Source: a virus
DNA length: 64,000 nucleotides
Virus record (IMG/VR): IMGVR_UViG_3300043788_000101
Coordinates: 1-64,000 of that record
Direction: 5' to 3' (one strand)
Shown: one piece after another, positions 1 through 14,289 of the stretch
Layout: each line of letters opens with the position of its first letter
Position numbering within the stretch: the stretch's first letter is position 1
Made by a program: the position numbers and the translations under genes
The notes under the pieces: generated by a model
What the model was told of the DNA's origin: nothing
Seen by the model: only the letters and a program-made list of their open reading frames with translations
Database searches by the model: none

Positions 1-444
1 GCGAACTTGGCCCGCGCGGACTTGGCCGGCGCTCGGAACGTCCCAGCTTCACTGAAAGACCACGTCGATCCGACCACGCCATACGTGCGCAAGTCGACGC
101 CGGACACGCGGCAGGCGCGCGCGCAGCGCTACCGCGAAGCGCACCCAGAGGTGCCTGTTGTCGAGAATCTTGACGCCAAGATACTAGAAGCCGTCACGAC
201 GGGCGGCGGTCACTTGGACATGTCGACGTGGCATGTCTGCGAGACGACGCACTGCCGCGGTGGCTGGACGGTTCATCTCGCGGGGAAGGCAGGCTACGAG
301 CTGGAGGCTAAGCTCGGCGGGACCGAATCGGCCGCGCGTGTCATCTACCGCGCCTCAACAGGTCGTGTGCCGCATTTCTACGCGACGAATGAGCATGCAC
401 TCGAAGACATCCGTCGCTGTGCCGCGGAAGACGGGAGCGTGTAA
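1..444 (+). CDS. Pentapeptide-repeat protein, 5' truncated by window edge
   Basis: Frame from base 1 reads ANLAR-ADLAG (A[DN]Lxx repeats), followed by a C-terminal domain LDMSTWHVCETTHCRGGW. Confidence 0.7.
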   Translation, partial: ANLARADLAGARNVPASLKDHVDPTTPYVRKSTPDTRQARAQRYREAHPEVPVVENLDAKILEAVTTGGGHLDMSTWHVCETTHCRGGWTVHLAGKAGYELEAKLGGTESAARVIYRASTGRVPHFYATNEHALEDIRRCAAEDGSV

Positions 445-1210: not shown

Positions 1211-1707
1211 ATGGATCGCCACTGAGCCCAGTTGGAGATTGGGTGATCGCAATCTGCGCAGGCAAAGACCTGATCGGGCAACCGCACTACGCCGGGCGAC
1301 CGCTTCGCTCCGTCGGTGGAAGCGTCGTCGGGCGCTCGACGGACCCAGGCCGCATCGTCTCGCTCTCCCCCGTCTTCGAGCTGCAAATCAAGATCGAAGT
1401 CCTGCAGGTCATGGACGCCAGAACGCGCCAGGCCGCGCGCGATCCCCAGGGTAATCCCATGCTTCAGCAACGCGCTCAGTACAGCGCGGTCCCGGTCCTG
1501 CTACTCGCGTCGCTGGCCAGCATCGACCTGCCCGAAGGCGCCATCCTCATCGAGGTGACGTCGCTGTCTCCCGAGGACCGAAAGCGCATGGCCTCATGCG
1601 TTGCGCAAGCCGAGGGGATGCAGGCGAACATGCGCGCGGCCGAGACCAACCTCACGCTCGTGTCGAGCCTGCCGGCCGGGATGCCGAAGCCGCCGGGGCT
1701 GCCGTGA
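1207..1707 (+). CDS. Hypothetical protein
   Basis: ATGA coupling, GGAG RBS. Confidence 0.75.
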   Translation: MNGSPLSPVGDWVIAICAGKDLIGQPHYAGRPLRSVGGSVVGRSTDPGRIVSLSPVFELQIKIEVLQVMDARTRQAARDPQGNPMLQQRAQYSAVPVLLLASLASIDLPEGAILIEVTSLSPEDRKRMASCVAQAEGMQANMRAAETNLTLVSSLPAGMPKPPGLP

Positions 1708-4186: not shown

Positions 4187-4668
4187 ATCACATTTTATGC
4201 GACGAGTGCGTACTCGCGGTGTTCCGCGATGCCGTGCCAGGCGAAAAGACGTGCACGCACGGCTGCTACAACGCGAAGTGTATCCGGTGCGGAAAGCAGA
4301 ACCGGAGCACGCTCATGCATCCAATCCCCGAAGAGACGTTGATGCACTGCTTCGGCGGCGTGGACGGAAATCCGTACGACGCGGACCCGCAAGCGAAAAC
4401 CGCTCGCTCGCGGTGGGCGGAGAAGTTTGGAGAGACCGAGCACAAGACGCGGTGCTACTTCCGCGCGACCGTGCACCTCTTCGATCGCGAGAAAGTGGGA
4501 CTTGAGAAGCGAGAGCTTCGCTGCGAACTGGAGCGCGGCCATTCTGGATACTGCGAGCTGAGCTTCCCGAATGAGCCGGAGTACGGCTACTCACAAGGCA
4601 AGCGATACGTGTGGGACGGACGCGGCGACTACTTACGTGAGCACGGTGCGCGGAGCCTGGACACGTGA
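4183..4668 (+). CDS. Cys-rich hypothetical protein
   Basis: ATG at 4183; several CxxC pairs. Confidence 0.65.
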   Translation: MNHILCDECVLAVFRDAVPGEKTCTHGCYNAKCIRCGKQNRSTLMHPIPEETLMHCFGGVDGNPYDADPQAKTARSRWAEKFGETEHKTRCYFRATVHLFDREKVGLEKRELRCELERGHSGYCELSFPNEPEYGYSQGKRYVWDGRGDYLREHGARSLDT

Positions 4669-5039
4669 CGCCGCTCGTCTTCACCGTCGACGGTCCGCCG
4701 CAAGGCAAGCAGCGCCCGCGACTCGGCAAGGGCGGCAACATCTACACGCCCGCCGAGACGCGCGCCTACGAGCGCCGCGTCAAGGTGCTCGCGCTGCAGG
4801 CCGTCCGCTCGCACGAGTCGTGGCCCATGGCGACGAGCCTGCCGGTGCGCGTGACCCTGCGACTATTCTTCGAGAACAGCCGCAGGCACGACGCGGACAA
4901 CGTCGCGAAGGCTATTTTGGACGCGGGCAACGGGGTCGTGTGGAAGGACGACGATCAGGTCGCGGAGCTTCACGTCTACAAGTGCCTCGATGCGGAGAAG
5001 CCGCGGGTCGAGGTGAGCGTCGAACTGGGGGCGTTCTGA
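4665..5039 (+). CDS. rusA: RusA-family Holliday junction resolvase
   Basis: GPPQGKQRPR...DADNVAKAILDAGNGVVWKDDDQV. Confidence 0.93.
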   Translation: MTPLVFTVDGPPQGKQRPRLGKGGNIYTPAETRAYERRVKVLALQAVRSHESWPMATSLPVRVTLRLFFENSRRHDADNVAKAILDAGNGVVWKDDDQVAELHVYKCLDAEKPRVEVSVELGAF

Positions 5040-5040
5040 G

Positions 5041-5247
5041 ATGACCGACGACCAACTGACCTGCCGCTGCGGCCAACCGCTGCCGACGTTCTCGCTCACG
5101 AACACGCACGGGCCGCGGTTCACGTGCGGGTGCGGGCGCCAGTATGGTCCGCCGGACATCAACGTCGGCGTGCTACTCGATCGCGTGGACGCGCTGCAGG
5201 CTCGGGTCGAGGCGCTCGAGGCGAAGAATGAGGAGCACAAGCTGTGA
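5041..5247 (+). CDS. Small Zn-ribbon plus coiled-coil protein
   Basis: CRCG...CGCG followed by heptad helix. Confidence 0.6.
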   Translation: MTDDQLTCRCGQPLPTFSLTNTHGPRFTCGCGRQYGPPDINVGVLLDRVDALQARVEALEAKNEEHKL

Positions 5248-5612
5248 AAGTCCTCGTCACCGGCTCGCGCAAGTGGACCAACTGCGATCTCATTCGCGCC
5301 GAGCTAAAAGCGTGGGCCGCAATCGACCCTCAGCTCATCGTGGTCCACGGCGCGTGTCGAGGCGCCGACGCGATCGCGGGCTCGATTGCGAAAGAGCTGG
5401 GGCTCACCGTGCGCGAGTACCCGGGCGACTGGCTTCGCTACGGACTCGCAGCGGGGCCCATTCGCAATAGCGAGCTTCTCAAAGCGGAGCACACCGACTG
5501 CGACGTCAAGATCGATCTCTGCCTCGCGTTCGGCGACGGGCCTGGCACGCGCGACATGACGCGCAAGGCGTTCTCGAAGGGGATCCGAATCGTGGAGATA
5601 CACGAGGTATGA
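5244..5612 (+). CDS. SLOG-family (DUF2493-like) protein
   Basis: KVLVTGSR...VVHGACRGAD...AAGPIRN...AF.DGPGT. Confidence 0.88.
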   Translation: MKVLVTGSRKWTNCDLIRAELKAWAAIDPQLIVVHGACRGADAIAGSIAKELGLTVREYPGDWLRYGLAAGPIRNSELLKAEHTDCDVKIDLCLAFGDGPGTRDMTRKAFSKGIRIVEIHEV

Positions 5613-5887: not shown

Positions 5888-6712
5888 ATGACAGAACGGA
5901 CGAACGGGCAGCGACTAAGCCCGGATCAACAGGCTGACCTTACTTGGTACTTTTGCGAAGCCGAGGCTGCGCTTGGGGTGAGGTCGAGCCTGGGTGCCCA
6001 GATCAACATGCTCCAATCACGCGCGATGCCGGAGCGCAGCCTGGCCGAAGCGCATGCCGCGTGGGACGTGTGGGACGTTCCGCTGGCGGGGCCGCAGGAC
6101 GCCAAGGCGCGCAAGTGGGCCAGGGCGGACGCGGAACTTCGAGCCGTGTGGCAAACGCTGGCCGTGTCGGGCGCCTCGCAGGGCGATTGCACGAGGTACG
6201 GCATCGCGTTCGATGACGTGCGCCACGGCGACGAGCAGGGGCTCGGCCTGGACTTCGTGACGTACGAACCGGACTGGACGCGGATAGCGGGAGGCGCCGC
6301 GCAGGTTCGGCAACGGAGTCGTAGGGTGTGGGGCGCGCTACGCACGATGAAAGAGAAGCCAGGTGGCCTTCGGCACGAACTGGTCTTGTTTCGAATTTAC
6401 GGGCCAAAGATTGCGGTGCTTCAAGAGAGCAAGATGGTCGCGAAGAACGAGCGCGAAAACTTCGAACTTGTGCCGCTGTTTGAGTACTGCGGCGAAATCA
6501 CGAGGCGCTTCGATGGTACAAGTGATCGTCGGCGCGTGCTCGAGTTGGCCCTGCGAAAGCCCACGGAAGCGCTCAAGCGTGTGCTACGCGAGCAAGCGAA
6601 AGAGCTTTTGGCACACGCGTCGGTGGCCTATTCCGCAGCCGCGGAGTCCGCGATAGTCGAATTGAGAGACAAGAAACGATCGCGCGTGATTCGACTCATG
6701 GCGGCTGCGTAA
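5888..6712 (+). CDS. Hypothetical 274-aa protein, possible late transcription regulator
   Basis: AGGAGGG RBS; lies between RusA cluster and terminase; function inferred from position only. Confidence 0.6.
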   Translation: MTERTNGQRLSPDQQADLTWYFCEAEAALGVRSSLGAQINMLQSRAMPERSLAEAHAAWDVWDVPLAGPQDAKARKWARADAELRAVWQTLAVSGASQGDCTRYGIAFDDVRHGDEQGLGLDFVTYEPDWTRIAGGAAQVRQRSRRVWGALRTMKEKPGGLRHELVLFRIYGPKIAVLQESKMVAKNERENFELVPLFEYCGEITRRFDGTSDRRRVLELALRKPTEALKRVLREQAKELLAHASVAYSAAAESAIVELRDKKRSRVIRLMAAA

Positions 6713-6720
6713 GGAATCAT

Positions 6721-6885
6721 GGCTGCGCGGGGCCAGGCTAGGCTCAGCAAGGCATCGTGGGTCAACGCAAGGCGTGGGAACGTCACGAGGAGAAGCCTAT
6801 AGGAGGGCAAGACATCGCTTGTCTCGGCAACACCAGGCATCGCACGTCCCGACGCAGCTCAGTAAGTCTAGTCAACGCAAGGCAA
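6721..6885 (+). repeat. Degenerate pentanucleotide array, 33 units, consensus GGC-NN
   Basis: 17 of 33 in-phase pentamers have GC at positions 2-3; GTCAACGCAAGGC occurs at 6761 and 6871, exactly 110 nt apart; followed by AGGC-TTCG-GCCT hairpin at 6887-6898. Confidence 0.85.
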
Positions 6886-6912
6886 GAGGCTTCGGCCTAG
6901 AATGAATCGCAA

Positions 6913-7323
6913 GTGAGTAAGTCAGCAGCACTCAAACTCCCGACCGGGCTCGCGAGGTCAGTCTCGATGTTCGGGCTGGCTGGGCGCGTCGCGAAGGTCA
7001 CTGGGCAGACGCAGTCCGCTTGCTACAAAAGAATCCGCAGACAGCTAATCAAGTGGCTCGGTCAAGACGTCGCAGAAGGGCACCCGCCGTGGATGTACCG
7101 GCAGCCTGGGCGGGCGCGCAATATCGCTTGGCGAATCAACTTGCCAGCGTTGCGAAAATGCCATCCGACATTTTTCGAGGACATCTCTCCCAAAGAGATT
7201 GAGGACCGCGTCGAAGTTCTCGAAGCTCAGGTCGTCGAACTCGAGTGGGCACGCGACGCGATGGCGGAGGAGATCGGAAAGCTTCGCGGTCAGGTGGCGA
7301 TCGCGCGGAGGGCGAGCGGATGA
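6913..7323 (+). CDS. Putative DNA-binding protein with C-terminal coiled coil
   Basis: HTH-like VAKVTGQTQSACYKRIRR; heptads IEDRVEVLEAQVVELE. Confidence 0.55.
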   Translation: MSKSAALKLPTGLARSVSMFGLAGRVAKVTGQTQSACYKRIRRQLIKWLGQDVAEGHPPWMYRQPGRARNIAWRINLPALRKCHPTFFEDISPKEIEDRVEVLEAQVVELEWARDAMAEEIGKLRGQVAIARRASG

Positions 7324-7562
7324 GCGTCGCCGAGTGGAAGCGCTACGGCCGAGTCGGCGGCACCACGCACGCCGCGCATCTCTTCGAATGGGCGAAGCAG
7401 CTCTGCACGGTGAAGCACTCTTTCTTCGCGGCCAAGAGCAAGACGGAGCAGGCGAAGTTCAAGCCGGCGCATCCGGCGGGGCTCCACCCTTCCGGGCTTC
7501 CGTTCGGGCACATCTGTCCGAGGTGTCTCAAGCTCTGGGAAGCGCGGAGGAGAGAAGCGTGA
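7320..7562 (+). CDS. Hypothetical protein
   Basis: GGAGG RBS, ATGA overlap, CPRC. Confidence 0.65.
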   Translation: MSVAEWKRYGRVGGTTHAAHLFEWAKQLCTVKHSFFAAKSKTEQAKFKPAHPAGLHPSGLPFGHICPRCLKLWEARRREA

Positions 7563-7834
7563 TCGACGATTCGACAGCAGCGCTCGCCGCAGCGTGGACT
7601 CTCGTCTGCGGCATCGTCGTCGGCTGGATCTTCCGAGGCGCCGAGGAGCGAAGGCGTGCGGTGGCGAGACTCGAGGCGATCGCAGCGGAGCGGTACGGGT
7701 GGGAATGCGTCGAGTCGAAGTTTCGCTGGGTCCGCATGCGCCAGCCGCCGACTCGTCCAGCGCTTCCGGGCGAGACGGACCCGCCAGTGATCGCTGACTC
7801 AGGAGCAACCAGTCAACGAAAATCGCGCGGCTGA
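7559..7834 (+). CDS. Small membrane protein
   Basis: GTGA overlap; ALAAAWTLVCGIVVGWIF. Confidence 0.6.
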   Translation: MIDDSTAALAAAWTLVCGIVVGWIFRGAEERRRAVARLEAIAAERYGWECVESKFRWVRMRQPPTRPALPGETDPPVIADSGATSQRKSRG

Positions 7835-8134
7835 GTTCTAAGTGCGCGACTTCTATGCGTTCCGTCGTGACTGCAAGCCTTGACGGAAATAGAACTGAGC
7901 CGTCACATTGCGCAACTTACAGTGTATTACCAATCTACGTAGTGTAGCGTCACTTCAGTTGGCCACTGTTGGACGTACTTGACCATATCCTACATGAAGT
8001 GTTTAGGAGTCTCGCAGTGGCCGCTTCGTCTGGGCCCTCCTACAACTCGTCGCTTCGACCGCGCGGGCTCCGCTAACGTTGACGCAACCTGACGCACTGC
8101 GTAGGTTCCACGTGACAACACGTCTCATCCGTAA

Positions 8135-8644
8135 GTGCCAGCCAAGAAGCGCAGACCACCCACAACCACAGCCCACGCCGCCAAGCGCGAGAGCGTCCTC
8201 TCCCGCCTTCTCGGCTTCGAGCCGCTGGCCGACATCGCCGCCTCCGAGCGCGCCACACCGGCGGCCATCAGCGACCGGATGAAGGTCGAGCTTGCGGCGG
8301 TCGTCCTGGCCCCGGCCGAGTTCGAGCACTTGCGGGCCATCGAGACGCTTCGGCTCGACCGCTACCGGCGGGCGCTCGATAGCTTGGCCATGACGGGCGA
8401 CGCGCAGGCCGTGCGGGTCTGCATCGACGCCTCTAAGGCCGTTCTCGCCTGGGCGCAAGCCGGGCAGGCGGTCAAGGTCGAGCACTCGGGCACCCTGAAG
8501 CACCTGAACGTTGACGCCACCAAACTCAGCGACGCCGAACTTCGAGACCTTGCGGCAGGCGCTTGGCCCCAGGCCCCCGAGGGAGCTATCGGCGGCGGCG
8601 GAGTTGGAGCGGCGCCGGAGACTGAGAGCGGCGGGGCTCCTTGA
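8135..8644 (+). CDS. Putative terminase small subunit
   Basis: Directly upstream of and overlapping the large subunit; KVEHSG...LSDAEL tail typical of small terminases. Confidence 0.6.
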   Translation: MPAKKRRPPTTTAHAAKRESVLSRLLGFEPLADIAASERATPAAISDRMKVELAAVVLAPAEFEHLRAIETLRLDRYRRALDSLAMTGDAQAVRVCIDASKAVLAWAQAGQAVKVEHSGTLKHLNVDATKLSDAELRDLAAGAWPQAPEGAIGGGGVGAAPETESGGAP

Positions 8645-9992
8645 CTTCGTTCCGATGCTGTCGCCGGAGTACGATAGCCCGCGGCACCTAAGGCCGCTGA
8701 CGTTTCAGCTCGAGCGGGCGCTCCGAGAGTCGGTCCGGTTTCTCTTCAGCGTTCCGCCGCAGCACGCCAAGACCTCGACGCTCGCGAGCGGCATCGTCTG
8801 GACGATGCTCCGCGACCCTACGCGGTCGCACATCTACGTCACCTACCAGACCAAGCGGACGCGCGAAGTCAGTATCCTGACCCGGAAGCTCGCGGAGCGC
8901 GCTGGGCTCCGGCCGGAAGGGACGCAAGACCTCTGGCGGCTGCCTGAGGGCGGCCAGATCAGCTTCACCTCGTTCGAGGGGCAGCTCGGCGGGACTCCCG
9001 CATCGGGGCTCATCATCGTCGACGACCCGCACAAAAACCGGGGCGAGGCGGAGTCGTCGATCGTCCGCGAGCACGTCTGGAGCGAGTTCAAGTCCTCGGT
9101 CATGACGCGTATGCACAATACGACGTCGGTGATAGTCGTTCACACACGCTGGACGCTCGACGACCTCATCGCGCGGCTCGAGAAGCAGCCGGACCCGATC
9201 GACCCGGAGCGCAAGCTCTGGACCTACAAGAACCTGCCGGCCATCAACGAGGCGGGCGAGCTTCTATGGCCGGAGCACAAGTCGCATCGACTCATCGAGG
9301 AAGCTCGGGCGCGCGGCGAGTACGATTGGTGGTCGCTCTACATGGGCGAGCCGCGTCCGCCGGGTGGGACAGTCTTTCGAGACGTCCAATACTACGACGA
9401 GCTTCCGAAGACGTACCGCGTAGCATTCGGCCTGGACCTCGCCTACACGGCGACTGCTAGATCGGACTATTCGTGCGCGGTTGTGCTCGCCGAAAGCGGC
9501 GGCAACTACTACGTGCTCGACGTCAAGCGTGATAGATGCGCGCCGTATGAGTTCGCCCCGAAGCTTCGCGAGATTCACGCGATGTACCCCGGCGCGCAAG
9601 GCCTCTGGCATACCAGCTCGACCGAGACGGGCACGGCCGACCTGATGCGCAAGGAGATGGGCTTTCACGTTCGCAGCGAGATTGCGAAGGGGAAAGGCTA
9701 CCAGCGCGCGCAGCCGGTCGCAGCGGCGTGGAATCCGCGCGAAGGCAAGCCGGGCCGAGTATTTCTACCGCGCGACAAGCCATGGGTGTCCGAGTTCGTG
9801 ACCGAGATCCTCAACTTCACCGGAGACGAGCGTCAGCACGATGACCAAGTGGTAGCGTTGGCGAGCGCGTTCACGCAGCTCGGGAGCACGGTGACGGAAG
9901 TGCCCCGCGCCTTCCCAACCAAGTTCACCAAGCAAGTCGGGGGCGGTCCCGTGTTTCCGCAGGGCGACAAGGGCGGCGGGTTCGTATGGTGA
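8511..9992 (+). CDS. terL: Terminase large subunit
   Basis: Walker A VPPQHAKT, Walker B IIVDDPHK, HTRW..DDL, nuclease motifs GLDLA..SDYS and HDDQV; start uncertain. Confidence 0.95.
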   Translation: MTPPNSATPNFETLRQALGPRPPRELSAAAELERRRRLRAAGLLDFVPMLSPEYDSPRHLRPLTFQLERALRESVRFLFSVPPQHAKTSTLASGIVWTMLRDPTRSHIYVTYQTKRTREVSILTRKLAERAGLRPEGTQDLWRLPEGGQISFTSFEGQLGGTPASGLIIVDDPHKNRGEAESSIVREHVWSEFKSSVMTRMHNTTSVIVVHTRWTLDDLIARLEKQPDPIDPERKLWTYKNLPAINEAGELLWPEHKSHRLIEEARARGEYDWWSLYMGEPRPPGGTVFRDVQYYDELPKTYRVAFGLDLAYTATARSDYSCAVVLAESGGNYYVLDVKRDRCAPYEFAPKLREIHAMYPGAQGLWHTSSTETGTADLMRKEMGFHVRSEIAKGKGYQRAQPVAAAWNPREGKPGRVFLPRDKPWVSEFVTEILNFTGDERQHDDQVVALASAFTQLGSTVTEVPRAFPTKFTKQVGGGPVFPQGDKGGGFVW

Positions 9993-10180
9993 TGCCGACA
10001 ACGTGCTCGTGCGGTCGCCACTTCTGGCACGACGTCATGCGAGTCTACGTCGCGCGCCTCTCGTCGGGCCTGGTCATCCTCAAGGCGCACGCGTGGCCGG
10101 TCTGCGTGCAGCAGCTCGACGCCGAGCGTCTGGCGCGGAGCGAAGAGGACACGCGACCAGACCTCGACGTCGTCAAGTGA
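9986..10180 (+). CDS. Hypothetical protein
   Basis: Overlaps terL stop and is coupled to next ORF. Confidence 0.5.
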   Translation: MVMPTTCSCGRHFWHDVMRVYVARLSSGLVILKAHAWPVCVQQLDAERLARSEEDTRPDLDVVK

Positions 10181-10599
10181 TCCCGAGGCGCCCTCATCCC
10201 AGCGACACTCCGAGCCGCCAGCCCGTCCTCGACTGGGTGCGAGCCAACGCGCCAGACCTTCGCCTCGGCAAGAAGCTGGAGGGCGATCACCGGGTCTGCT
10301 TCGCGCGCTTCACGTTCGCCGGAGTCGTCTACGAGTTTCGTGCGAGCGGCGAGGACTACGCGAACCCGGACGACGAGATCGTGCGGATGTGCGAAGCCGC
10401 GCAGCGCAAGGCCATGAAGCTCAAGTCGCCGCCGGGGCGCGTGCAGGGTCCTGGCCTCGAGCAGGCGATCATCGCCGCCGAGCTGGCCGGCGACCCGGGC
10501 GAGGTCGCGGCGCTCACGCAAGAACTCATGACAGGCAGGCCGCGCGAGGAGTCGCGCTTTCAACGCATTCCCACCAAGTGGGGCACACGGACCGTATGA
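10177..10599 (+). CDS. Hypothetical protein
   Basis: GTGA overlap; GC3-rich codons. Confidence 0.65.
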   Translation: MIPRRPHPSDTPSRQPVLDWVRANAPDLRLGKKLEGDHRVCFARFTFAGVVYEFRASGEDYANPDDEIVRMCEAAQRKAMKLKSPPGRVQGPGLEQAIIAAELAGDPGEVAALTQELMTGRPREESRFQRIPTKWGTRTV

Positions 10600-12381: not shown

Positions 12382-14289
12382 ATGGCAAACCCCACGAACG
12401 GAGGCGGCTGGAACAACGGCCCTCAGCCTAGCAACGGCCAGACGGGCGTCTTGCGCGGCGCGGGCGGCAACACGCTTTACGACCAGTTCGGTAACTGGCT
12501 GCCGCCGACCAACGATCCCGCGTTTCAGCCGCCTGGCAATCCGCTCCGTGACGTAGGGGCGGCCAAGGCCCGCGCTCGCGTCATCAACCGCGAGATCCCC
12601 GACGTCGTCGTCGAGACGGGCTGGAGCCCGGGGACGATTCGCGCGGCGCTGATGGATCTGGTCGTCGGTCTTTTCGACCGGCCGAGCCAGCTGCACGAAA
12701 GCATCATGTCCGACTCGCGCGTGCAAAGCGCGATGAAGTCGCGAAGCGGCGGCCTTCTCGGTCGCGCCATCCGGTTCAAGATCCCCAAGCGGTTCAAGGA
12801 CGACGACCGCGCGATCGAATGCCACGCGGCGTGGGAGCGGCACTGGCCCTCGATGCACGCGGAGCCAGCACTCCTGCAGATGCTCGAGACCGCGCACTCG
12901 CTCGGCTTCTCCTACTCGCAGATTCTCTGGGACACGAGCCGGCGCATCTGGAAGCCGTATCTCGTCCCGTTCAACGCGCGCTACTGCTACTACCACTGGA
13001 CGCTCCGCACGCACGTCGCGGTCACGCTCGACGGGCAGCTTCCCATCACGGGTGGCGACGCGCACTGGGTCCTGCACGCTCCTTACGGGAGCTACCGCGG
13101 CTGGATGTTCGGGGCGCTGCGGTCGATCGCGCAGTGGTACCTCGCGCGCAACTACGCCCTTCGCGACTGGGCCCGCTACTGCGAGCGCCACGGCTTCCCC
13201 ATCCCACTCGCCGACACGCCGTTCGGCGCAGACCCGCAAGACATCGCGGCCTACCAGGCGCAGCTCGCCAACCTCGGACAAGAGTCCGTCATGCAGCTGC
13301 CGGGTTCGGTCGACGTCAACAAGTACGGCAAGTACGACCTACGCTACCTCGAGCCGACCGACGACAACTGGCAGGCGTTCAAGGCGCTCATCGAGCAGTG
13401 CAACGATGAGATCACGCTCTCGCTTCTCGCGCAAAACCTCACGACGCAAGTCAAAGAGGGAAGCTTCGCGGCCGCGCGCGTGCACGCCGACGTGCGCCAG
13501 GCGCTGCTGGAGGCCGACGCGAGGGCGCTCGCCAAGACGCTCTACGTTCAGGTCGCGCGCCCGTTCGCGGCCATCAACTTCGGCGACGCGAACCTCGCGC
13601 CCGAGATCACGTGGGACGTCCGGCCGCCCGAAGACCTCAAGACGAAGGCCGAGACCGCCGAGTCGCTGTTCGTTGGCATGGCGCAGCTTCGCCAAGCGGG
13701 ACTTCGGATCAAGAACCCGGAGAAGTTCGCCCGCCGCTTCGGCATCCTCGGTCTCGAGCTTGAGGAAATCGATCCGCTCCAGGTCGAAGCCAAGCTCGCG
13801 CAAGCCACGGGCAAGGTGGACGCTGGAGACAACGCTACACCGACTGCCGACGACGAAAAGAAAAAGAGCAAGAAGTCCGACGAGCAAGACGAGGGCAAGG
13901 AAGACAAGGGCGAGGAGAGCGCCCTGTCTAGGTCCGAGCTTCGCCGCGTCGAACGCCGCCGCACGGCGCGAATGGTCGCCAAGGCCACGCGCAGGGCGGC
14001 CCGCGCGGTCATTGCCCCAGCGCTCGCGACGGTCGAAGCGCAAAGCGTGGACACGGCCGAGCGGCTGGCCGCCTTCGGGGCGCAGCTCGCTGAGCTTTCG
14101 TCGAGAGAGCCGCCTCCACCGCCACCAGCGCCCGAGCCACCGCCCGAGCCAGAACTGTCCTTCGCACAACGTAACGCGGGTTTCCTCGCCGACCTGAAAG
14201 AGATGCGCGACCTCGGACTGAAGACGGACAGAGACGCGATCGAGCGGCTCGCAGAGCTTCACGGCGTGCCGCCCCCTGAGGTCGAGTAG
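12382..14289 (+). CDS. Portal protein, DUF935/Mu gp29-like, with C-terminal low-complexity extension
   Basis: WARYCERHGFP, CNDEITLSLLAQNLTT, GSFAAARVHADVR motifs; position after terL. Confidence 0.9.
   Translation: MANPTNGGGWNNGPQPSNGQTGVLRGAGGNTLYDQFGNWLPPTNDPAFQPPGNPLRDVGAAKARARVINREIPDVVVETGWSPGTIRAALMDLVVGLFDRPSQLHESIMSDSRVQSAMKSRSGGLLGRAIRFKIPKRFKDDDRAIECHAAWERHWPSMHAEPALLQMLETAHSLGFSYSQILWDTSRRIWKPYLVPFNARYCYYHWTLRTHVAVTLDGQLPITGGDAHWVLHAPYGSYRGWMFGALRSIAQWYLARNYALRDWARYCERHGFPIPLADTPFGADPQDIAAYQAQLANLGQESVMQLPGSVDVNKYGKYDLRYLEPTDDNWQAFKALIEQCNDEITLSLLAQNLTTQVKEGSFAAARVHADVRQALLEADARALAKTLYVQVARPFAAINFGDANLAPEITWDVRPPEDLKTKAETAESLFVGMAQLRQAGLRIKNPEKFARRFGILGLELEEIDPLQVEAKLAQATGKVDAGDNATPTADDEKKKSKKSDEQDEGKEDKGEESALSRSELRRVERRRTARMVAKATRRAARAVIAPALATVEAQSVDTAERLAAFGAQLAELSSREPPPPPPAPEPPPEPELSFAQRNAGFLADLKEMRDLGLKTDRDAIERLAELHGVPPPEVE

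Follow-up and report, generated by a model that had tools for sequence, protein, structure and literature searches.

The intergenic tract and its five-base periodicity

The stretch of DNA analysed here, referred to as the window, is the first 64 kb (64,000 nucleotides) of a complete 90,916-bp virus record (IMG/VR IMGVR_UViG_3300043788_000101) with 118-bp direct terminal repeats. The locus of interest is an intergenic tract at 6713-6900, bounded on one side by the stop codon of a gene that we call gene A (6710-6712) and on the other by the GTG start of a gene encoding a 136-aa protein (Table 1). Gene A has eight homologues, with which it shares 54-95% identity, and no match in Pfam, PHROGs, PDB sequences or the ESM Atlas; its AF2 model is poor (pLDDT 39). 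The large terminase gene follows at 8511-9992. A short distance upstream, a RusA resolvase is encoded at 4665-5039 and a protein of the YspA/SLOG family at 5244-5612, which places the locus at the boundary between the replication/recombination and packaging modules. Elsewhere in the window, ARAGORN reports a tRNA-Ala (anticodon TGC) on the minus strand at 13934-14026, which at 93 nt is unusually long for the bacterial type and may hold an intron or insertion. A scan of the tract for promoters and terminators found no sigma-70-like promoter and no intrinsic terminator.

Table 1. Features at the locus, and related genes and arrays in other genomes. Coordinates are those of the window unless another genome is named.
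Feature	Coordinates	Strand	Remarks
Gene A	5888..6712	+	274-aa ORF adjoining the guides; its own site homologous to the vrRNA-1 target is 6473-6498
Predicted vrRNA-1	6716..~6790	+	Guide, then tail starting GTCAACGCAAGGC
vrRNA-1 guide region	6716..6760	+	9 pentamer units
vrRNA-1 3' tail	6761..6790	+	Opens with GTCAACGCAAGGC; 3' end approximate; matching of the variable dinucleotides to the target ceases here
Putative vipr leader/ribosome-binding site relic	6791..6810	+	..AGGAGGGCAAGACA; ends at the deletion junction
Predicted vrRNA-2	6806/6811..6899	+	Guide, then tail with UUCG hairpin at its end
vrRNA-2 guide region	6811..6870	+	12 units; possible extra 5' unit GGCAA at 6806-6810 (12-13 units)
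vrRNA-2 3' tail	6871..6899	+	GTCAA CGCAA GGCAA G, then hairpin AGGC-UUCG-GCCU (6887-6898)
136-aa gene	6913..7323	+	GTG start, immediately downstream of vrRNA-2; weak sub-threshold DivIC match only
vipr genes of sister phages	L005 1079-1699; L003 1058-; L001 7981-8799		Identified by profile and fold
Arrays beside Vipr relatives in MAGs	L013 2901-3000, 3562-3680; L014 2860-3000, 3538-3680; L015 1-110, 645-800		

Read in pentamers from 6721, the tract stays in phase for 33 units. Position 1 of the unit is G in 18 units, C in 10 and A in five, and is never T; position 2 is G in 24 of the 33 (73%); and position 3 is C in 25 and T in four, so that C or T stands there in 29/33 (88%). Positions 4 and 5 are variable, and 45 of their 66 bases are A or T in a genome of 63.7% GC. 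GC occupies positions 2-3 in 17 units, and among the remaining units CCTAT alone is without both G2 and C3. The counts of in-phase units, of GC at positions 2-3 and of A/T given by the first-pass annotation of this DNA, a reading of the sequence made without database searches, were thus reproduced exactly. At lags 5, 10 and 15 the autocorrelation of the tract is 0.42, 0.37 and 0.42, respectively, and at other lags approximately 0.22. Its period-5 G statistic is 89.8, compared with 12.7 +/- 5.3 (maximum 38.9) for 2000 dinucleotide-preserving shuffles (z = 14.6), and nothing is elevated at periods 2-4, 6-9 or 11-12, period 10 being a harmonic of 5. No other part of the 64-kb window has so strong a period-5 signal. 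In the complete genome the only comparable signal is a peak at ~90,727, which we set aside as a candidate vrRNA locus: it lies in coding sequence for pentapeptide repeats, whose period is 15 nt. That sequence (A[DN]LAxA..., genome 90,640-90,916) extends into the 118-bp direct terminal repeat (window 1-118).

Periodicity of this kind might have origins other than a guide RNA. TRAP binds (G/U)AG triplets with a spacing of 2-3 nt, and a triplet with a 2-nt spacer also has period 5. With the terminase module downstream of the tract and small ORFs of 43-47 aa overlapping it, one could imagine an RNA leader for a TRAP-like ring, a signal that acts at the DNA level close to the packaging genes, or a short coding ORF. 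We find such an unrelated element scarcely credible. A period of five is incompatible with coding, as the first-pass annotation had also judged, and a search of Rfam (evalue mode) over 6000-8000 returned no family. An element of this type would moreover leave unexplained the homology to the flanks of vipr genes, the tail shared across the family and the matches in codon register found with a 1-nt skip only, all of which are described below. The resemblance to the TRAP-binding trp leader RNA of Bacillus, in which triplets 2-3 nt apart are wrapped by a repeating protein, is one of geometry only: there is no TRAP-like gene, the motif differs, and a TRAP site has no need of complementarity to a target.

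Two candidate vrRNAs and a deletion junction

VIPR is a CRISPR-like phage silencing system that was first described in 2026 (bioRxiv 10.64898/2026.04.26.720920). Its guide RNAs (vrRNAs) are built of five-nucleotide units, each bound by one Vipr protomer, in which two variable bases (NN) pair with the target DNA and one target base in three is skipped, and targets show at least 80% NN identity (10.64898/2026.04.26.720920, 10.64898/2026.04.26.720927, 10.64898/2026.10.15.759431). A vrRNA has 9-16 units, and both a 'related consensus' and 'internal degeneracy' of the scaffold have been noted (10.64898/2026.04.26.720920). The first-pass annotation had noted a resemblance to the GGY/NN RNAs of this system, which is borne out both by the published work and by the presence of vipr at exactly the same locus in sister phages (see below). 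It had also taken the tract for one 165-nt guide RNA ending in a UUCG hairpin. Judged from its sequence, the tract instead comprises two vrRNAs, with the 13-mer GTCAACGCAAGGC opening both tails, at 6761 and 6871; the hairpin (AGGC-TTCG-GCCT) is indeed present at 6887-6898 but belongs to the tail of the second. The 33 in-phase units fall accordingly into two blocks, of ~12-13 and ~16 units, and the pentamer phase begins one unit before 6721, at 6716. With tail units counted, the number of units per RNA is within the published range of 9-16.

The guide of the predicted vrRNA-1 reads ATCAT GGCTG CGCGG GGCCA GGCTA GGCTC AGCAA GGCAT CGTGG, giving the NN letters AT TG GG CA TA TC AA AT GG; those of the predicted vrRNA-2 are AT TT TC AA CA AT AC CC GC TC AA TA. 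The vrRNA-1 tail is homologous to tracts that lie upstream of vipr in the related phages L003 and L005. That of vrRNA-2 recurs in a third relative, L001, at 9996-10020 (GGCTTCGGTCT), where the hairpin retains a G-U pair, and another copy at L001 6878-6900 (GCCC-TTCG-GGGC) carries compensatory hairpin changes. Matches to the tail motif at 4699 and 20682 of the window were dismissed, as they are inside coding regions and show no periodicity. The guide regions fold no better than their shuffles (vrRNA-2, z = +1.5), which fits a single strand coated by protein.

The tract thus holds tandem 5-nt units of the type that defines vrRNAs (a GGY or related scaffold plus NN, in at least four and typically 9-16 copies), followed by a conserved and structured 3' tail, although this tail is unlike the pseudoknot of the vrRNAs of Escherichia phage SUSP1. 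The vrRNA-2 scaffold is much looser than GGY, with CAC, GTC, GAC and AGT all present; this agrees with the GAC-NN and GGC-NN arrays found beside relatives of Vipr and with the G-D-Y scaffold of L005. On sequence grounds such looseness could mean that binding by a Vipr is not assured, and it could also reflect decay after loss of vipr. No vipr gene adjoins the tract in this phage; one is present at the homologous locus of L003, L005 and L001. For lack of this neighbour, the tracts belong with the 'solo' vrRNAs, a published sub-class. Between the two predicted RNAs, the presumed deletion junction is at ~6810/6811, directly past an orphan ribosome-binding site, with no start codon after it in the window.

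Sister phages carry vipr at the same locus

In L003, gene A is 95% identical to that of the window and the first half of the tract is conserved nearly letter for letter, with identical guide letters, upstream of vipr. The identical sequence AGGAGGGCAAGACA is followed there directly by the ATG of a vipr ORF starting MHRAIAKLESTSPYSQSKHYD. A homologous tract in L005 likewise precedes a vipr ORF (206 aa), with a ribosome-binding site directly before the start as in L003, and a pentamer array of ~360 nt comes after this ORF. The third relative, L001 (IMGVR_UViG_3300043777_000073), is a 62-kb phage contig that is syntenic on both sides of the locus, with a gene A of 56% identity. In the slot between its gene A and its homologue of the 136-aa gene (6820-10025), a short tract comes first, followed by two ORFs and by a 272-aa ORF whose product has a glycine loop of the RAMP type; next are a small, weakly RHH-like ORF, a ~410-nt pentamer array, one more ORF and a last tract. 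This last tract is homologous to window 6831-6899, has the same tail and is followed by the same gene, the homologue of the 136-aa gene (10026-10424) lying directly 3' of the homologous vrRNA.

The VIPR cassettes in this slot differ: L003 and L005 have the 206-aa Vipr and G-D-Y/NN arrays, and L001 has a divergent 272-aa Vipr and GGN/NN arrays. Another relative, L004, has a sigma-70 region-2 protein directly after gene A (980-1526), with no pentamer tract and no vipr. These comparisons suggest that VIPR cassettes are exchanged and lost especially often in the slot between gene A and the gene for the 136-aa protein.

The phage under study has no complete VIPR system (a vipr gene with or without vap). 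When all six frames of the complete 90,916-bp genome were searched with a Vipr profile and with single sequences, no vipr was detected (best E 1.9), and the same searches recovered the genes of L005, L003 and L001 as positive controls (1e-10 to 1e-79). Gene A is not detectably RAMP-like in a Vipr profile search. The earlier observation that no RAMP-like gene is recognisable in the window is borne out, as far as vipr is concerned, across the whole 90.9-kb genome. The accompanying suggestion that the partner might be new does not: the protein in question would be Vipr, kept in the sisters and apparently lost here by deletion. Together, the homology to L003, L005 and L001 and the genome-wide search identify the tract as the flank of a vipr gene that sister phages possess and this phage lacks.

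The sister-phage genes are Vipr

The assignment of the sister-phage genes is supported by profile, structure prediction and context. The family of the L005 ORF comprises 946 clusters at 50% identity (E <= 1e-3), and a 60-sequence profile of it has a sole match in the PDB, the Vipr protein of SUSP1 (36pp_D, E = 8e-13). The same profile detects the truncated gene of L003 at 1e-20 and the divergent 272-aa ORF of L001 at 2e-10. The AF2 model of the L005 protein has a pLDDT of 96.6, and its top Foldseek matches are all RAMPs of the Cas7 type (type VII Cas7, Csm3, Cmr4 and Cascade Cas7). The G-loop of the sister-phage proteins reads GIGRFRPE or GIGEWRPE. By sequence profile and by predicted fold, the genes at the homologous locus are bona fide vipr genes. 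A search of IMG/VR with the single L005 Vipr as query yielded no close relative. In MAGs of different phyla, all five of the further Vipr relatives inspected have strong period-5 arrays abutting vipr, and these arrays, among them those of L013, L014 and L015, end in xxCAA xxCAA G, as do the tracts in the window. Scaffolds of the MAG arrays are GAC-NN in Saccharibacteria and Geobacteraceae MAGs and GGC-NN in a Sandaracinaceae MAG, and such lineage-specific scaffolds imply that scaffold position 2 is not fixed as G in the L005 Vipr family. In a profile alignment, the SUSP1 residues reported to read G1 and G2 (D177, R138 and W178) align with R, F and F in the clade of L005 and of P0160, the full-length Vipr of the closest sister; these substitutions could explain the looser scaffold.

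The guides match a rival vipr and a rival allele of gene A

Targets were sought by the published NNxNN rule, that is, gapless with every third target base skipped (a 1-nt skip), and were called at NN identities of at least 80%. The vrRNA-2 guide matches the vipr gene of L005 (minus strand, within 1395..1349) at 22/24 positions (0.92), with 16/16 in the last eight units, and the site encodes TKYFEAGVMCIDSI, a conserved Vipr motif (YFEAGVMC codons). The vrRNA-1 guide matches the gene-A homologue of L004 (748..723, minus strand) at 17/18 positions (0.94), where the site encodes PIFEYCPEI; at the homologous site in the phage's own gene A, only 14/18 positions agree (0.78). None of 1000 shuffled guides reached the target score for vrRNA-1, and none of 1000 for vrRNA-2. 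The skipped bases of both matches all fall on codon position 3, the wobble position. When the skip was set to 0, 2 or 3, or the register was shifted by 1-4, scores stayed at the null level; the sole exceptions, the 'matches' at skip 3, are trivial self-homology, being the homologous tracts themselves and not targets. The idea put forward at first reading, that a fixed 3-nt scaffold and a variable dinucleotide make up a gapped guide whose NN string should be searched with gaps of 0-3 nt, is thus upheld, with matches that are significant at a 1-nt skip only. Within the phage's own genome no self-target reaches 0.8; the best scores, 14/18 (0.78) and 17/24 (0.71), are within the null distribution of shuffled guides. 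Both guides hence combine a natural target at 80% or more with no self-targeting at that level, as is characteristic of vrRNAs.

Exact searches of IMG/VR were also made. The eight-unit core of vrRNA-2 has four exact matches, one of which is inside a second vipr gene (L010). Those in L008, L009 and L011 were taken as chance, since they fall in non-Vipr ORFs and the pattern itself dictates the peptide. The L010 gene (436-1057, minus strand, IMGVR_UViG_3300010396_000018) is split over two frames, covering profile positions 1-135 and 133-187, and is either a frameshifted pseudogene or an assembly error. The exact ten-unit vrRNA-2 pattern has no match in IMG/VR, and the exact nine-unit vrRNA-1 pattern has one, in an unrelated AT-rich phage ORF (L012) that was again taken as chance. 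The best targets found are imperfect, and no full-length perfect target was found in IMG/VR. At the vrRNA-2 site, P0160 has YFEAGVMS, with S for C at one targeted codon. In the reverse direction, the arrays of L001 and L005 have no target in this phage at 17/18 or better.

A comparison of the vrRNA-2 core with the last vrRNA of L001 revealed changes at 9/24 scaffold positions and at 0/16 NN positions (Fisher p = 0.006), a disparity suggesting that the guide letters are under selection. L003 is nearly identical to the window overall, and the identity of their NN letters is therefore of no help in this respect.

These results bear on whether the RNAs are still in use. The tracts might be a non-functional relic, left unused and decaying by a recent deletion of vipr. 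The absence of vipr from the genome, the orphan ribosome-binding site at the junction and the degenerate scaffold of vrRNA-2 would all be expected of such remains, and L003 is so close that the time elapsed may have been too short for decay to be visible. We nevertheless consider this unlikely. Both guides still match real targets at 0.92-0.94, and the NN letters of the anti-vipr core are unchanged relative to L001, despite nine scaffold changes and a gene A that is only 56% identical. Furthermore, no genome that carries a given vipr is compatible with a guide against it, so that the presence of an anti-vipr guide here looks selected rather than accidental, and published VIPR-null lineages do retain solo vrRNAs (10.64898/2026.10.15.759431).

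A different role, as a decoy or sponge, would have the RNAs mainly titrate the Vipr of a rival or divert it to harmless sites instead of silencing the predicted targets. There is precedent in the solo vrRNAs of E. coli satellites, which redirect Vipr to decoy sites (10.64898/2026.10.15.759431), and the tract offers ~25-30 units to which protomers could bind. A sponge, however, has no need of specific NN letters, yet the letters here have been conserved and correspond, in codon register, to vipr and gene A, and we think it very improbable that titration or diversion is the main function.

A probable guide-only locus in a phage that lacks vipr

Several features of the locus were observed directly: the repeat architecture, the homology to vipr flanks, the absence of vipr itself and the wobble-aligned matches that are specific to the published rule. 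The explanation that we favour, and hold to be probable from the sequence comparisons, is that vipr was deleted from the middle of the tract, leaving the phage with a pair of VIPR guide-RNA genes that stand alone ('solo' or 'orphan'). Both RNAs would be series of 5-nt units in which three scaffold bases, of a relaxed G/C-G-Y rather than a strict GGY type, are gripped by one Vipr protomer, and the two variable bases would pair with double-stranded DNA, every third target base being skipped. The units would be followed by the conserved tail (GTCAACGCAAGGC...), which on the second RNA includes the UUCG hairpin. In a phage with no Vipr of its own, the RNAs, once transcribed and processed, would act only by being loaded into the Vipr of a co-infecting or resident VIPR-positive relative. 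Silencing by vrRNA-2 would then fall on the conserved YFEAGVMC codons of the vipr gene that the relative itself carries, and vrRNA-1 would steer Vipr onto a rival allele of gene A while sparing the phage's own. A guide against a given vipr can be tolerated only where that gene is missing, as it is here and also in L001, where the Vipr is of a different type. The phage may derive a fitness benefit from this arrangement, a point that is unproven even for the published solo vrRNAs (10.64898/2026.10.15.759431).

Solo vrRNAs on a VIPR-null phage are of a kind already reported in 2026. Lopez et al. described 346 VIPR-null phages of Enterobacteriaceae that lost vipr-vap1 and retain one or two solo vrRNAs, of which many align with the vipr genes of rivals so that the skips fall on wobble positions (bioRxiv 10.64898/2026.10.15.759431). 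The present locus resembles those of the VIPR-null SUSP1-family phages and F5 satellites in that vipr appears to have been lost by a deletion inside the VIPR locus that left one or two vrRNAs behind, in that one guide is aimed at the vipr of relatives with the skips on wobble positions, and in that the self-match is below the match to the rival. It differs in its lineage, which is an unrelated, uncultured one of 63.7% GC and 91 kb that does not belong to the phages of Enterobacteriaceae and is known here from sequence alone. The Vipr clade of its sisters is also distinct (the 206-aa L005/P0160 type, with a G-loop of GIGRFRP against GVGDWRP), as is the tail: where SUSP1 has a pseudoknot, GTCAACGCAAGGC and a UUCG hairpin are present here. 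The scaffold follows a relaxed G/C-G/T/A-Y pattern, in which position 3 remains a pyrimidine and positions 1-2 are loose, and the other guide, vrRNA-1, would be directed at a rival allele of the gene right beside it. What the sequence adds is thus a new, GC-rich lineage with a relaxed scaffold.

Comparison with systems that retain their effector is also instructive. The type II VIPR system of SUSP1 (Vipr, vap1 and vrRNA1-4; PDB 36pp) shares with the locus the pentamers of scaffold plus NN, the 9-16 units, the conserved 3' tail and the 1-nt skip with wobble alignment, and the sister loci have its layout of one vrRNA upstream and further vrRNAs downstream of vipr; unlike SUSP1, the genome studied here is without vipr or vap, and G1 and G2 are not strictly G. 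The parallel with the crRNA of Class 1 CRISPR systems on its Cas7 backbone lies in the RAMP filament, the fixed periodicity of the guide and the bases that are flipped out at regular intervals, and the Vipr models of the sister phages match Cas7 and Csm3. In contrast to those systems, CRISPR repeats, spacers and other cas genes are absent, reading of the target is gapped, and the period is 5 with two bases read, as opposed to 6 with five.

To date, solo vrRNAs on VIPR-null phages have been reported only for phages of Enterobacteriaceae and their satellites. To find this arrangement again in an uncultured phage that is unrelated to them, and with another clade of Vipr, speaks for the 'guns for hire' model as a general one. 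With two guides that have predicted targets, a vipr-positive sister and a rival allele, the locus further provides a compact natural test case for whether orphan guides commandeer the Vipr of a competitor and for how far a Vipr depends on the GGY scaffold. More tentatively, and with rather less confidence than we have in the orphan guides themselves, we raise the possibility that guide-only loss of vipr arose here independently, far from the enterobacterial SUSP1 group, that it is coupled to a linked module of guide and resistant allele (vrRNA-1 directly behind the escaping gene A), and that it involves a Vipr clade which apparently reads little of GGY beyond the pyrimidine. If this is true, phages in conflict with one another would resort generally and repeatedly to hijacking a rival's Vipr with guides alone, and the scaffold code would allow more variation than the published GGY rule.
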